Part shown: positions 1 through 39,008 of the stretch, piece by piece
Numbering within the stretch: the stretch's first letter is position 1
How the letters are laid out: every line of letters begins with the position of its first letter
Assembly (NCBI RefSeq): GCF_003334315.1
Contig: NZ_QOWR01000008.1
Reading direction: 5' to 3' (one strand)
Origin: Escherichia coli
GTDB taxonomy: Bacteria > Pseudomonadota > Gammaproteobacteria > Enterobacterales > Enterobacteriaceae
DNA length: 64,000 nt
The notes under the pieces: generated by a model
Seen by the model: the letters and a program-made list of their open reading frames with translations, nothing else
Database searches by the model: none
Told to the model about the DNA's origin: nothing
Translations under genes and position numbers: made by a program

Positions 1-149
1 GGTTGAGAAGCGGTGTAAGTGAACTGCAGTTGCCATGTTTTACGGCAGTGAGAGCAGAGATAGCGCTGATGTCCGGCGGTGCTTTTGCCGTTACGCACCA
101 CCCCGTCAGTAGCTGAACAGGAGGGACAGCTGATAGAAACAGAAGCCAC
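1..149 (-). CDS. insA: IS1 InsA, N-terminal fragment (5-prime part only, cut by window edge)
   Basis: Minus-strand GTG at 147-149 followed by codons translating [49 protein letters not shown], matching recalled InsA. Confidence 0.8.
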
Positions 150-204
150 TGGAGCACCTCAAAAACACCATCATACACTAAATCAGTAAGTTGGCATCAT
201 CACC
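1..204 (-). mobile_element. IS1 insertion sequence, left end only (truncated by window edge), terminal inverted repeat at 182-204
   Basis: Positions 1-204 read as the reverse complement of the recalled IS1 left end; terminal repeat reads GGTGATGATGCCAACTTACTGAT on the minus strand, one mismatch to the recalled canonical IRL. Confidence 0.85.
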
Positions 205-409
205 GATAAAGAATATGATTTATTACAATGTAATCATTAATTGCTAAGGAATAACCCAGTTGCTATTTAGAATATATATTTATCAGTTTTAGTAATTTAA
301 ATCCCATAATTAATGTGAATATATACAATATTTTTAGCACAACGCTATGCGCACTGTCACCCGCTCAACAGATCACGGTTATCGTTCGTTTTTTATACTG
401 TTCAGGGAT

Positions 410-441
410 AAAAAAAGGCCCCTGTTGAAATTGCAGGGGCC
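410..441 (-). terminator. Rho-independent terminator downstream of cutC
   Basis: GC-rich hairpin ggcccctg/caggggcc at 417-441, followed on the minus strand by a U-run (plus-strand A-run 410-416). Confidence 0.7.
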
Positions 442-488
442 TGGTACGAGCAAGCATCATATTGGGCGACATGATGCAACGGTAAAAA

Positions 489-1244
<756 letters not shown>

Positions 1245-1248
1245 TTAA

Positions 1249-1815
1249 TTACGCCGACTGCTCGCTGGCAACGATCTCTTCAATGGACCACGGATGAAAC
1301 TTAATAGTTGTTTTGCCATCGGTGACCGCCAGCGTCGGATTCGGTAATCGCTCATGCTCACCTTTTGGCGAACTGGTTTTCACTGAGATCCCCGGTAGGC
1401 TGAGTCCTTCATCAGAAAGCAATGCCAGCGCACGGGCATTCAGCGTTTCTGGATCACCCGGCAGAACGATTTCAATATGTTCCCAACCTTCGTGTGGGTA
1501 ACGTTTTTCCCCGGGCCACGGTAGCTCCACAATAGAAAACTGCCAGTGCGCAACCTGTACCGGTTCATGCAATTTAAACAGACAAATCGGTCTGCCATTG
1601 ATCATATTTTCTGACAAAAGCTCGCCACACTGTTCAAACCCGCGACGCCAGCGTTCAGCAGTGGCGTTTTGATGGCAACGCAAAGAAATGTGATCGGCAG
1701 TCAGCGGAGTGATATTCAACCCCAGACGGCGGGAAAGTTCATCTAATGCGTGGATAAATCGCGGTAAATCCGATGCAATATCCTGCAGCTCGTCGATAGA
1801 TTGCCAGTTCGCCAT
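1249..1815 (-). CDS. yecM: YecM, conserved protein of unknown function
   Basis: ORF 1249-1821; start moved to Met giving MANWQSIDELQ, matching recalled YecM. Confidence 0.9.
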   Translation of the reverse strand: MANWQSIDELQDIASDLPRFIHALDELSRRLGLNITPLTADHISLRCHQNATAERWRRGFEQCGELLSENMINGRPICLFKLHEPVQVAHWQFSIVELPWPGEKRYPHEGWEHIEIVLPGDPETLNARALALLSDEGLSLPGISVKTSSPKGEHERLPNPTLAVTDGKTTIKFHPWSIEEIVASEQSA

Positions 1816-2030
1816 AATCACTCTTCGTCTTTCAGTAAAAGCGTTAATTTACCCTGTTGCCCTGTGCCAACCAACCGCTGATTTCACGCCGCTTCTGATG
1901 CAATAGTGAAAACGGCAATACGCCACGCGCACGTTGCTGACGAAAACAGCCATTTGCAGTATACTCCCGCCCTAATTTCTTTAACTGGTGCGGGCAATTT
2001 TTGCTCGCTTCATCAATGTAAGGTATTCCG

Positions 2031-3764
2031 GTGAATATTCAGGCTCTTCTCTCAGAAAAAGTCCGTCAGGCCATGATTGCGGCAGGCGCGCCTGCGGATT
2101 GCGAACCGCAGGTTCGTCAGTCAGCAAAAGTTCAGTTCGGCGACTATCAGGCTAACGGCATGATGGCAGTTGCTAAAAAACTGGGTATGGCACCGCGACA
2201 ATTAGCAGAGCAGGTGCTGACTCATCTGGATCTTAACGGTATCGCCAGCAAAGTTGAGATCGCCGGTCCAGGCTTTATCAACATTTTCCTTGATCCGGCA
2301 TTCCTGGCTGAACATGTTCAGCAGGCGCTGGCGTCCGATCGTCTCGGTGTTGCTACGCCAGAAAAACAGACCATTGTGGTTGACTACTCTGCGCCAAACG
2401 TGGCGAAAGAGATGCATGTCGGTCACCTGCGCTCTACCATTATTGGTGACGCAGCAGTGCGTACTCTGGAGTTCCTCGGTCACAAAGTGATTCGCGCAAA
2501 CCACGTCGGCGACTGGGGCACTCAGTTCGGTATGCTGATTGCATGGCTGGAAAAGCAGCAGCAGGAAAACGCCGGTGAAATGGAGCTGGCTGACCTTGAA
2601 GGTTTCTACCGCGATGCGAAAAAGCATTACGATGAAGATGAAGAGTTCGCCGAGCGCGCACGTAACTACGTGGTAAAACTGCAAAGCGGTGACGAATATT
2701 TCCGCGAGATGTGGCGCAAACTGGTCGACATCACCATGACGCAGAACCAGATCACCTACGATCGTCTCAACGTGACGCTGACCCGTGATGACGTGATGGG
2801 CGAAAGCCTCTACAACCCGATGCTGCCAGGAATTGTGGCGGATCTCAAAGCCAAAGGTCTGGCAGTAGAAAGCGAAGGGGCGACCGTCGTATTCCTTGAT
2901 GAGTTTAAAAACAAGGAAGGCGAACCGATGGGCGTGATCATTCAGAAGAAAGATGGCGGCTATCTCTACACCACCACTGATATCGCCTGTGCGAAATATC
3001 GTTATGAAACACTGCATGCCGATCGCGTGCTGTATTACATCGACTCCCGTCAGCATCAACACCTGATGCAGGCATGGGCGATCGTCCGTAAAGCAGGCTA
3101 TGTACCGGAATCCGTACCGCTGGAACACCACATGTTCGGCATGATGCTGGGTAAAGACGGCAAACCGTTCAAAACCCGCGCGGGTGGTACAGTGAAACTG
3201 GCCGATCTGCTGGATGAAGCCCTGGAACGTGCACGCCGTCTGGTGGCAGAAAAGAACCCGGATATGCCAGCCGACGAGCTGGAAAAACTGGCTAACGCGG
3301 TTGGTATTGGTGCGGTGAAATATGCGGATCTCTCCAAAAACCGCACCACGGACTACATCTTCGACTGGGACAACATGCTGGCGTTTGAGGGTAATACCGC
3401 GCCATACATGCAGTATGCATACACGCGTGTATTGTCCGTGTTCCGTAAAGCAGAAATTGACGAAGAGCAACTGGCTGCAGCTCCGGTTATCATCCGTGAA
3501 GATCGTGAAGCGCAACTGGCAGCTCGCTTGCTGCAGTTTGAAGAAACCCTCACCGTGGTTGCCCGTGAAGGTACGCCGCATGTGATGTGTGCTTACCTGT
3601 ACGATCTGGCCGGTCTGTTCTCTGGCTTCTACGAGCACTGCCCGATCCTCAGCGCAGAAAACGAAGAAGTGCGTAACAGCCGTCTGAAACTGGCACAACT
3701 GACGGCGAAGACGCTGAAGCTGGGTCTGGATACGCTGGGTATTGAGACTGTAGAGCGTATGTAA
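2031..3764 (+). CDS. argS: Arginyl-tRNA synthetase
   Basis: 577-aa ORF with GTG start; [14 protein letters not shown]-terminus and class I synthetase HVGH motif. Confidence 0.97.
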
Positions 3765-3783
3765 TCGATTTTTCGTGAGAGTG

Positions 3784-3820
3784 AAGCCTGATCAGGGTTA
3801 CCTGATCAGGCTTTTTTATT
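3784..3820 (+). terminator. Rho-independent terminator of argS
   Basis: Hairpin gaagcctgatcagg/cctgatcaggctt followed by a T-run. Confidence 0.75.
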
Positions 3821-3940
3821 GCCATCTAAATGTATTCTGAAAATGGACATGCCATCGTTTTCTCACTGTTGGGTAAGAAGTCAGAAGCGTAATATTCGGC
3901 CCCAGGGAAACGATAACGGTTGAATTTAAGGAATACCGCA

Positions 3941-19176: not shown

Positions 19177-19209
19177 AAAAAAAAGCAGCGGTACGTCGTT
19201 ACCGCTGCT
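19177..19209 (-). terminator. Rho-independent terminator of the flhDC operon
   Basis: Hairpin agcagcggta/taccgctgct (19184-19209) followed on the minus strand by an 8-nt U-run. Confidence 0.75.
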
Positions 19210-36554: not shown

Positions 36555-37012
36555 AGGAATATCTCCAGAAATAGGGATAACGCTACTGATAGTTAGTCAT
36601 TCGTATATTAGCGGTTTTTATTGCAACTTTGAAACGTTAAAAATGGTGGGTATTCGATTTTTCTCTCGTTTTTGTCAATTCGATTGTCCACAGTTATGGT
36701 CACGCCCGTCACCAACGGCTTACCGGATCGTTTCACAGTAAGCCCGGCGATGAAATGTGACAAAAATTGACTTTATTCAGCAAAAATGAAAATCAGCCCG
36801 CTGAATATGTAACATTAATTAACCCAAACAATACGGGCAAAAAACATTCATGATAAAAATATTTATTGGTCATTATATTAACGTATTTTATAGCACTGTT
36901 GATATCACGCTCAAAAAACAACCACTGCTATTTTTAGCAAAGCTTATGGTATACTCCGCCGCCTTAACATTTTTCACCGCAAATTTTCATTGCAACATGA
37001 CGAGGAAAATAA

Positions 37013-37237
37013 ATGAGTACGCCTGATTTTTCTACTGCCGAGAATAATCAAGAACTGGCAAATGAAGTCTCCTGCCTGAAAGCGATGCTGACGCTGATGC
37101 TGCAGGCGATGGGACAAGCTGACGCGGGCCGCGTGATGTTAAAGATGGAAAAACAGCTTGCGCTGATCGAAGACGAAACCCAGGCTGCAGTATTTTCCAA
37201 AACGGTTAAGCAAATTAAACAAGCCTACCGTCAGTAA
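37013..37237 (+). CDS. yecF: YecF, DUF2594 family protein
   Basis: 74-aa ORF matching recalled YecF. Confidence 0.9.
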
Positions 37238-37303: not shown

Positions 37304-38026
37304 TCAAATTAAGCCAGTAGCGGCCGCGTAACAGGCAACCTGGGTCTTATTCGGTGCATTGATTTTTTTCTGCATGTTTTTCTGATGGAAATTGACCGTA
37401 TTCTCAGAGATTGACAAAATCATCGCTATCTCTGCTGATGTCTTCCCTTCCGCCGTCCACCTCAGAATTTCTTTTTCGCGCTTGCTGAAATTCATCTCTG
37501 GCGTCATCACTATTTCATCATTTAAACGCATCAGAGCCATCAGACTTTCGCGCACCAGTAACTGCATTTTTAATTGCAGTTCATCACTAAGAATGGGTAT
37601 TTCGCGCGCGCTGCAACGGGAAAAGGACAAAAAGCCCAGCGCCCGGTTTGGCAGCATTAAATACTGAGTGACACCGCGGCGTAAACCATGTGCGCGCGCG
37701 GCTTCCCATAACGGCTGTGCTTCGTTGAATAAGTCATCATTCCACATTAGATGGCCCTGACTAAAGTTTTCAGGGTTCAGCACCGGATCAATTGCGAGAA
37801 AGTTTTTTGCCTGATAATAACTAACCCACGCCTCAGGGTAATTGGTGTAGAAAGCCACTTTAGGTCGCGTGAATGGTACCGGGTGGCGAACACATAACGA
37901 ATAGTAATCGTACTCCAGCTGCTGAGCCTGAAGCTCTATTTCATGGTAGACCTCTTCTGCGGCCTCCATCCTCTGAAAACGCAACAGCATCGTGCGACGC
38001 CAGCTGAAAAAATCCGTATCCTGCAT
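37304..38026 (-). CDS. sdiA: LuxR-family quorum-sensing regulator SdiA
   Basis: ORF 37304-38038; start moved to MQDTDFFSWRRTMLL (240 aa). Confidence 0.94.
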   Translation of the reverse strand: MQDTDFFSWRRTMLLRFQRMEAAEEVYHEIELQAQQLEYDYYSLCVRHPVPFTRPKVAFYTNYPEAWVSYYQAKNFLAIDPVLNPENFSQGHLMWNDDLFNEAQPLWEAARAHGLRRGVTQYLMLPNRALGFLSFSRCSAREIPILSDELQLKMQLLVRESLMALMRLNDEIVMTPEMNFSKREKEILRWTAEGKTSAEIAMILSISENTVNFHQKNMQKKINAPNKTQVACYAAATGLI

Positions 38027-38217
38027 AGTAAACCGCAACGCCCCTGAGAGTGAGTATCATTTATAATGATAATTCAAACTATCACATAAATAAGATTTAT
38101 ATATAATTTATATTATTCAGGCAATGAATTACTTTTGCAAGCCATCACATTCTCTTATGTTATTAATGAGTTATGCTGATTTGTTAAGCAGTTTTATCAC
38201 GCTTGAAATAGCGTCCC

Positions 38218-38252
38218 GCCCCGACAGGTGAATCGTCGGGGCTGATTTTTTC
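38218..38252. terminator. Terminator-like hairpin just downstream of tcyN; the T-run is on the plus strand
   Basis: Stem gccccgac/gtcggggc with 9-nt loop; plus-strand T-run at 38246-38252 and an A-run on the other flank. Confidence 0.5.
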
Positions 38253-38255
38253 TTA

Positions 38256-39008
38256 TTATTGCAGCAGAAACTTCTCGAGGAACTGGCGGGTGCGAGGCTG
38301 CTGGGGATCGGCAAATAACGCTTTTGCTGCCCCCTGCTCGACTATCCGCCCCTGGTCCATAAAAATCGCCCGGTCCGCAACATCCCGGGCAAAGCTCATT
38401 TCGTGCGTCACAATCACCATCGTGCGCTTTTCCTGCGCCAGCTGACGGATGGTATTCAGGACTTCGCCCACCAGCTCTGGATCCAGCGCTGACGTTGGCT
38501 CGTCAAACAAAATCACCTCAGGACGCATTGCCAGCGCACGCGCAATCGCAACACGCTGCTGTTGACCGCCAGACAAACGACGTGGATAGCTGGTTTCTTT
38601 ACCGGCCAGCCCAACTTTCGCCAGTAGCTCGCGAGCGCGCGCCGTGGCCTCTTCTTTCGGTTCGCCTTTGACGATCACCGGCCCTTCAATAATGTTCTCC
38701 AGCACCGTACGATGCGGAAACAAATTAAAGTTCTGGAAGACAAACCCGACGTGCTGACGCAACTGGCGAATCAGCGATTTTTGCTGACTTAATGAACGTG
38801 CAGTATCAATAGTGATATCGCCAACGGTGATCGTTCCCGCTTCGGGTTGTTCCAGCAGATTTATGCTGCGTAGCAACGTGGTTTTGCCGGAACCACTCGG
38901 ACCGATAATTGCCACCACTTCGCCAGGCTTTACCTCGAGGTCGATACCGTGCAGCACCGTCTGACCGTGGAATTTTTTCACCAGGTTCTTAACTTCAATG
39001 GCACTCAT
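38256..39008 (-). CDS. tcyN: L-cystine ABC transporter ATP-binding protein
   Basis: 250-aa ORF with Walker A GPSGSGKTT and ABC signature; matches recalled YecC/TcyN. Confidence 0.93.
   Translation of the reverse strand: MSAIEVKNLVKKFHGQTVLHGIDLEVKPGEVVAIIGPSGSGKTTLLRSINLLEQPEAGTITVGDITIDTARSLSQQKSLIRQLRQHVGFVFQNFNLFPHRTVLENIIEGPVIVKGEPKEEATARARELLAKVGLAGKETSYPRRLSGGQQQRVAIARALAMRPEVILFDEPTSALDPELVGEVLNTIRQLAQEKRTMVIVTHEMSFARDVADRAIFMDQGRIVEQGAAKALFADPQQPRTRQFLEKFLLQ

Follow-up and report, generated by a model that had tools for sequence, protein, structure and literature searches.

The whole stretch of DNA that we analysed (64 kb of Escherichia coli sequence, referred to below as the window) contains the local gene order uvrY-yecU-yecF-sdiA-tcyN-tcyL. 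In the curated MG1655 record, an ncRNA gene, sdsN (b4719, "small regulatory RNA SdsN"), is found between sdiA and tcyN on the plus strand, at 1996921-1997057. A gap-free alignment converts the coordinates by a constant (window = MG1655 - 1958806) and places the annotated SdsN 3' end, MG1655 1997057, at window position 38251, the last T of a run of six. The copy in the window matches K-12 b4719 in sequence, strand and flanking genes, and is thus orthologous to it. The features of the locus are as follows.

37304-38026, minus strand: sdiA coding sequence, with its own transcription start reported at MG1655 1996893 (window 38087).
38062-38067, plus strand: TATAAT, putative -10 box for SdsN178, read from the sequence; its spacing is reckoned to the presumed start at 38074.
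38074-38251, plus strand: SdsN178, the longer isoform, which has its terminator in common with SdsN137; the start is deduced from the isoform name and the TATAAT 7 nt upstream.
38102-38107, plus strand: TATAAT, putative -10 box for SdsN137 (start at 38115), read from the sequence.
38115-38251, plus strand: SdsN137 sRNA (sdsN, b4719), with 133 of 137 bases as in K-12 (97.08% over 137 nt).
38212 (MG1655 1997018), minus strand: 3' end of the dcyD-tcyL-tcyN and tcyJ-dcyD-tcyLN transcripts, from SMRT-Cappable-seq.
38256-39008, minus strand: tcyN coding sequence, convergent with sdsN; its stop codon (38256-38258) lies 4 nt beyond the SdsN 3' end.

Within sdsN, the window differs from K-12 by single nucleotides at 38147, 38200, 38210 and 38217; none of these falls in the core stem of the terminal hairpin or in the U-run, and the last is located within the internal loop below the stem. 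A test at the level of the sequence showed that each TATAAT box lies 7-8 nt before a position from which an RNA ending at 38251 would be exactly 178 or 137 nt long, respectively. The 2.1-kb stretch of the window around the gene is 100% identical to several RefSeq E. coli genomes, and occurs in 5376 of the 5426 complete genomes.

Among the records inspected, sdsN is named only in the curated MG1655 record. The PGAP-annotated E. coli genomes that we inspected carry uvrY, yecU, yecF, sdiA, tcyN and tcyL in this region and no sdsN. A search of the plus strand of 38074-38251 against Rfam 15 gave no match even at E-values up to 10, chance-level hits only, and there is evidently no Rfam model for SdsN. 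The lack of an Rfam match is probably the reason why the annotation pipeline omits sdsN and why its terminator looks like an orphan. The original prediction, which described a hairpin between genes lying exclusively on the minus strand and treated any plus-strand RNA as an anonymous antisense transcript, was mistaken on both counts, since the plus-strand gene sdsN ends here, convergent with tcyN, and the RNA is the known sRNA SdsN. The practical lesson is that where sdsN has neither a PGAP annotation nor an Rfam match, a reader of the sequence alone meets a terminator without its gene.

The region upstream of SdsN contains two -10-like boxes arranged back to back, the TATAAT of SdsN137 (38102-38107, plus strand) and a TATAAA that reads from 38101 down to 38096 on the minus strand, ~9 nt upstream of the sdiA transcription start. 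This A+T-rich block (38096-38107) is kept across the genera sampled, whereas the SdsN body is not, and it looks like a divergent promoter pair. The deduced start of SdsN178 (38074, plus strand) and the published sdiA start (38087, minus strand) imply an antisense overlap of ~14 nt; SdsN137, starting at 38115, has no overlap with the sdiA 5' UTR.

At its 3' end the gene consists of the following elements, all given on the plus strand.

38199-38214: a small hairpin, ACGCU / UGAAAU / AGCGU, inside SdsN and upstream of the terminator, from folding and picked out by eye.
38213-38215: GUC, which pairs with GAU at 38244-38246 in the folded structure and extends the plus-strand stem to the U-run.
38218-38225: left stem arm GCCCCGAC, identical between the window, MG1655 and four other E. 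coli strains.
38226-38234: 9-nt loop AGGTGAATC, which differs among E. coli strains.
38235-38242: right stem arm GTCGGGGC, with one mismatch in the most divergent strain, MFDS1019527.
38243-38245: spacer TGA, by direct reading of the sequence.
38246-38251: T6 run, which forms the terminator's U-tract; it does not vary among the aligned E. coli strains and is a predicted Hfq-binding 3' tail.

The stem is a perfect 8-bp helix with seven G-C pairs, and on the plus strand the extended stem is followed by U6-C-UU; the bases beyond the T6 run read C at 38252 and then ttatta. RNA folding gave a free energy of -16.8 kcal/mol for the plus-strand hairpin (z = -3.76), and none of 200 shuffled sequences folded equally well. 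The minus-strand hairpin is equally stable, at -17.6 kcal/mol. The two strands differ in what surrounds the hairpin. The G-U wobble in the three-pair extension becomes an A-C mismatch on the minus strand, and the minus-strand (tcyN-sense) tail, GGGACGCUAUUUC, has a single U in its first 8 nt, so that no U-rich tract directly follows the stem on that side. A stable G+C-rich stem-loop and a U-rich tract after the stem, as in an intrinsic terminator, are both present on the plus strand. These results agree in large part with what had been predicted for the element: the stem and the T-run were confirmed, although the run comprises exactly six Ts (38246-38251) and not up to seven; the tail on the minus strand is indeed poor in U; the free energies bear out a strong hairpin on both strands; and the proposed plus-strand terminator is borne out by a hairpin of -16.8 kcal/mol, a U6 tract and an annotated sdsN end in the T-run.

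A custom scan of both strands of the 64-kb window for perfect 8-bp stems with five or more G/C, loops of 3-10 nt and a T6 run no more than 4 nt away detected four distinct sites, where 100 dinucleotide shuffles gave 0.02 on average. The hairpin with its T6 run is thus a member of a strongly non-random class, enriched ~200-fold in the window over the shuffles. A standard terminator scan, limited to loops of at most 8 nt and T-runs that start at most 2 nt from the stem, passed over the site because its 9-nt loop and 3-nt gap just exceed these limits. The same custom scan found three other textbook intrinsic terminators in the window, at 3786-3817 (plus strand), 19179-19208 (minus strand) and 411-441 (minus strand), each with a perfect G+C-rich stem of at least 8 bp and T6 directly behind it.

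A 49-nt terminator query matches 5376 of the 5426 complete E. coli genomes. We aligned the window with MG1655, 08-3914, F1140 and S4, and inspected the most divergent match, MFDS1019527, separately. The stem arms, the TGA spacer and the T6 run are unchanged in these strains, the sole exception being the one stem mismatch in MFDS1019527, and the loop differs at one to most of its positions, with variants of the ACTGTCGAA type, of the ACTGGTAAA type and AAGAGCGCC. A fixed stem, spacer and T6 run together with a variable loop is the pattern that would be expected under selection on terminator structure. In the small hairpin at 38199-38214, strain F1140 shows a compensatory change from C-G to U-A, and K-12 has a mismatch. 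In E. coli S4 (NZ_CP107140.1, 677396-678068), a deletion that takes out yecU, yecF, sdiA and the SdsN promoters has joined a truncated uvrY to the 3' half of sdsN, with the terminator and tcyN kept. Another locus (CP178317.1, 97.5% identical to the window) has a terminator in which one stem base is lost and the T-run is interrupted (GATTCTTTTC), with split tcyL, uvrY, uvrC and dcyD genes nearby. This locus was set aside as evidence on the terminator, since a decaying Shigella-like genome and an assembly error are indistinguishable here.

The E. coli K-12 sdsN gene reportedly gives rise to the sRNAs SdsN137, SdsN178 and SdsN124, in work ascribed to Hao, Updegrove, Livingston and Storz (NAR 2016). 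In PMC5736990, the isoforms SdsN137 and SdsN178 are described as products of two RpoS-dependent promoters that have one terminator in common. In PMC9262595, SdsN137 appears as one isoform among Hfq-dependent, RpoS-dependent sRNAs and represses narP, and PMC8139620 names nfsA and hmpA as confirmed SdsN targets and reports that SdsN protects cells against nitrofurans. The sources for the plus-strand 3' end at 38251 are thus the curated MG1655 annotation and papers that cite the original work. In the curated Term-seq lists of Adams et al. (2021), the interval 1997000-1997099 is empty of 3' ends on both strands; we take this absence as an effect of threshold or growth condition, neither a contradiction nor positive support. 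This locus is likewise absent from the TERMITe supplements.

On the minus strand, the position of the tcy operon 3' end is available from published SMRT-Cappable-seq data (Yan et al. 2018, PMC6131387, Supplementary Data 1, M9_TTS), in which the transcription termination site (TTS) of the operon maps to 1997018, 6 nt past the core stem. The reads of the two transcripts that arrive at this site are distributed as follows (PMC6131387).

dcyD-tcyL-tcyN, transcription start 1999508: 31 reads stop at the TTS, 17 run on for 50 bp or more and 4 stop within 50 bp, with a median read-through of 631 bp.
tcyJ-dcyD-tcyL-tcyN, transcription start 2000468: 10 reads stop at the TTS, 8 run on for 50 bp or more and 3 stop within 50 bp, with a median read-through of 293 bp.

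Hence 31 of 52 and 10 of 21 reads end at the site, and 33-38% pass it by at least 50 bp (PMC6131387). The same study lists a novel read-through operon, dcyD-tcyL-tcyN-sdiA (b1919|b1918|b1917|b1916), and reports the separate sdiA start at 1996893 (window 38087). The hairpin thus marks the 3' end of the tcy operon, leakily, with about one third of the transcripts entering sdiA, and this read-through fits the lack of a proper U-tract on the minus strand. The position of the hairpin between convergent units, sdsN (plus strand, end at 38251) and tcyN (minus strand), and the 3' ends that flank it on both strands (38251 on the plus strand from annotation, 38212 on the minus strand from published SMRT-Cappable-seq) are those of a bidirectional terminator. 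The suggestion that the element acts in both directions is accordingly upheld by the tcy-operon end 6 nt past the hairpin in full-length RNA data (PMC6131387). The related suggestion, that it serves the plus strand better than it serves tcyN, stands in so far as the U-tract is on the plus strand only; tcyN nonetheless uses the hairpin, if leakily. The minus-strand end at 38212 lies inside the small hairpin at 38199-38214.

The element is real, functional and already known. Based on the anatomy of the sequence, the match to annotated sdsN and the published 3' ends, we hold with high confidence that the hairpin and the U-run form the Rho-independent terminator common to the SdsN isoforms, and that the element acts as an asymmetric bidirectional terminator for the convergent units sdsN and tcyN. 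One competing explanation is that the hairpin is merely the terminator or 3' stabiliser of tcyN and the tcy operon, the T-run being only the complement of an upstream A-tract and ending no functional plus-strand RNA. It would account for the hairpin found 0-11 nt from the tcyN stop in 11 of 11 syntenic loci of other genera, and for the tcy-operon transcripts that end at the hairpin in SMRT-Cappable-seq (PMC6131387). We nevertheless regard it as very improbable: the curated sdsN gene ends exactly in the T-run, a common SdsN terminator is reported in PMC5736990, the aligned E. coli strains differ in the loop but have one and the same T-run and spacer, the G-U wobble in the extension favours the plus-strand fold, and T6 is found on that side in 0 of the 11 loci from other genera. 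A further explanation is that the element mainly stops long plus-strand antisense transcripts, namely yecU-yecF read-through antisense to sdiA. Both genes lie upstream on the plus strand and converge on sdiA, and any transcripts that escaped earlier termination would be stopped here before tcyN. Adams et al. (2021) reported, however, a Rho-termination region at 1996249 on the plus strand (window 37443), antisense to sdiA and ~770 nt before the hairpin, so that yecU-yecF read-through should mostly end before it reaches the hairpin and would not be its main substrate. The idea, raised in the original prediction, that the element insulates sdiA has the geometry backwards, since in the plus direction the element lies downstream of sdiA and gives it no protection; what it shields is tcyN, from transcription that starts at the SdsN promoters. 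A main role in stopping yecU-yecF read-through is improbable in our view. We note that yecU (36850-37026, plus strand), a small protein gene, overlaps the start of yecF (37013-37237), and that yecF and sdiA, being convergent, each appear to have their transcripts ended by Rho within the other gene.

For the minus strand alone, it is possible, though we lean against it, that no termination occurs at the hairpin, and that tcy transcripts end downstream, by Rho or otherwise, and are trimmed by 3'-5' exonucleases to the base of the hairpin, giving the end at 38212. The tail GGGACGCUAUUUC without a U-tract and the at least one third of the reads that continue into sdiA are in keeping with such trimming, as are a 3' end inside sdiA at 1996471 (minus strand) and a Rho region at 1995939 (minus strand), antisense to yecF (Adams et al. 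2021). Direct termination is favoured by the SMRT-Cappable-seq reads, which stop at a single defined position, 6 nt from the stem as is typical of termination, and by the observation that hairpins between convergent units can pause or terminate polymerases in the absence of a canonical U-tract (bioRxiv 10.1101/2022.10.23.513370). The end at 38212 may reflect weak termination, hairpin-induced pausing or exonucleolytic trimming.

In the asymmetric bidirectional terminator that we propose, the way in which transcription ends on each strand and the role in Hfq binding are deduced from these data. On the plus strand, RNA polymerase would start near 38074 and 38115, at the two promoters in the sdiA upstream region, and run toward tcyN; the 8+3-bp G+C-rich hairpin would then form and the RNA would be released in the U-run (38247-38251), 4 nt before the tcyN stop is reached. 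The terminal hairpin with its oligo-U tail is presumably also the Hfq-binding 3' module of SdsN, as it is in other sRNAs that depend on Hfq. The terminator would in this way keep transcription from the SdsN promoters from entering tcyN in antisense. On the minus strand, the same hairpin would set the 3' ends of the tcy operon mRNA 6 nt past the stem, with about one third of the transcripts continuing into sdiA.

To compare the element with other genera, we used 11 syntenic tcyN-sdiA loci (L083-L093) obtained via SdiA homologues: two from Salmonella, two from Citrobacter, one each from Klebsiella, Lelliottia, Kosakonia, Yokenella and Kluyvera, and two Enterobacteriaceae-like loci. A contig search based on TcyN was left out, as the matches listed were distant paralogues from Pseudomonas, Firmicutes and others (L003-L082). 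All 11 loci have a hairpin 0-11 nt from the tcyN stop; the hairpin sequences are unrelated and their free energies range from -8 to -31 kcal/mol. The slot for a hairpin at the tcyN stop is therefore kept in position across genera, and its content turns over. T6 on the sdsN-sense side was found in none of these loci, and several have a more U-rich tail on the tcyN-sense side (7 of 10 nt in L086, 6 of 10 in Kosakonia and a T8 run in Kluyvera). No homologue of the SdsN137 body or terminator was detected in the 11 loci by blastn-short or nhmmer, and in these loci the stretch from the sdiA start codon to the SdsN137 start is still recognisably conserved. This distribution suggests that the sRNA body, as well as the terminator's polarity, may be specific to the E. 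coli lineage, in a sample made up of E. coli and the loci listed above.

A more speculative reading is that SdsN body and terminator arose recently in the E. coli lineage, where a rebuilt tcyN hairpin came to capture divergent transcription from the sdiA promoter; taken as a whole, we consider it rather unlikely. According to it, the position-conserved hairpin at the tcyN 3' end would have been rebuilt with its U-tract now facing the opposite way, and divergent transcription from the conserved sdiA promoter block would have gained a defined 3' end and an Hfq-binding tail. If true, the cost or side effect would be leaky termination of the tcy operon, which would couple sdiA expression to the cysteine regulon.

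The significance of the site extends little beyond annotation, as it is the terminator of a characterised sRNA, and published full-length RNAs already show its activity on the minus strand. It does offer a clean natural asymmetric bidirectional terminator, common to an sRNA and an operon, with measurable read-through into the gene of a quorum-sensing regulator.

Compared with K-12 sdsN (b4719), the window copy is alike in locus, strand, core stem, spacer, T6 run and the TATAAT spacing for 178 and 137 nt, with 133 of 137 bases in common, and differs by four single-nucleotide changes, all outside the core stem and U-run. In canonical Hfq-dependent sRNA terminators, a hairpin and an oligo-U tail form the Hfq-binding module; SdsN resembles them in its G+C-rich hairpin and in having at least six Us at the very 3' end, but differs in a 3-nt UGA spacer that is bridged by three pairs including a G-U wobble, and its Hfq binding is predicted. 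Bidirectional terminators between convergent gene pairs were reportedly described by Ju et al. in 2019. Like the bidirectional terminators of convergent pairs analysed by Wang et al. (bioRxiv 10.1101/2022.10.23.513370), the sdsN/tcyN element has one hairpin between two units and 3' ends on both strands, its ends at 38251 (plus) and 38212 (minus) overlap by 40 nt, and its weaker direction is without a canonical U-tract. The partner of tcyN is, unlike those systems, a short sRNA found mostly in stationary phase, which makes collision-driven termination of the tcy operon in growing cells doubtful. It also differs from them in its strong asymmetry, as only one direction has a textbook intrinsic terminator.
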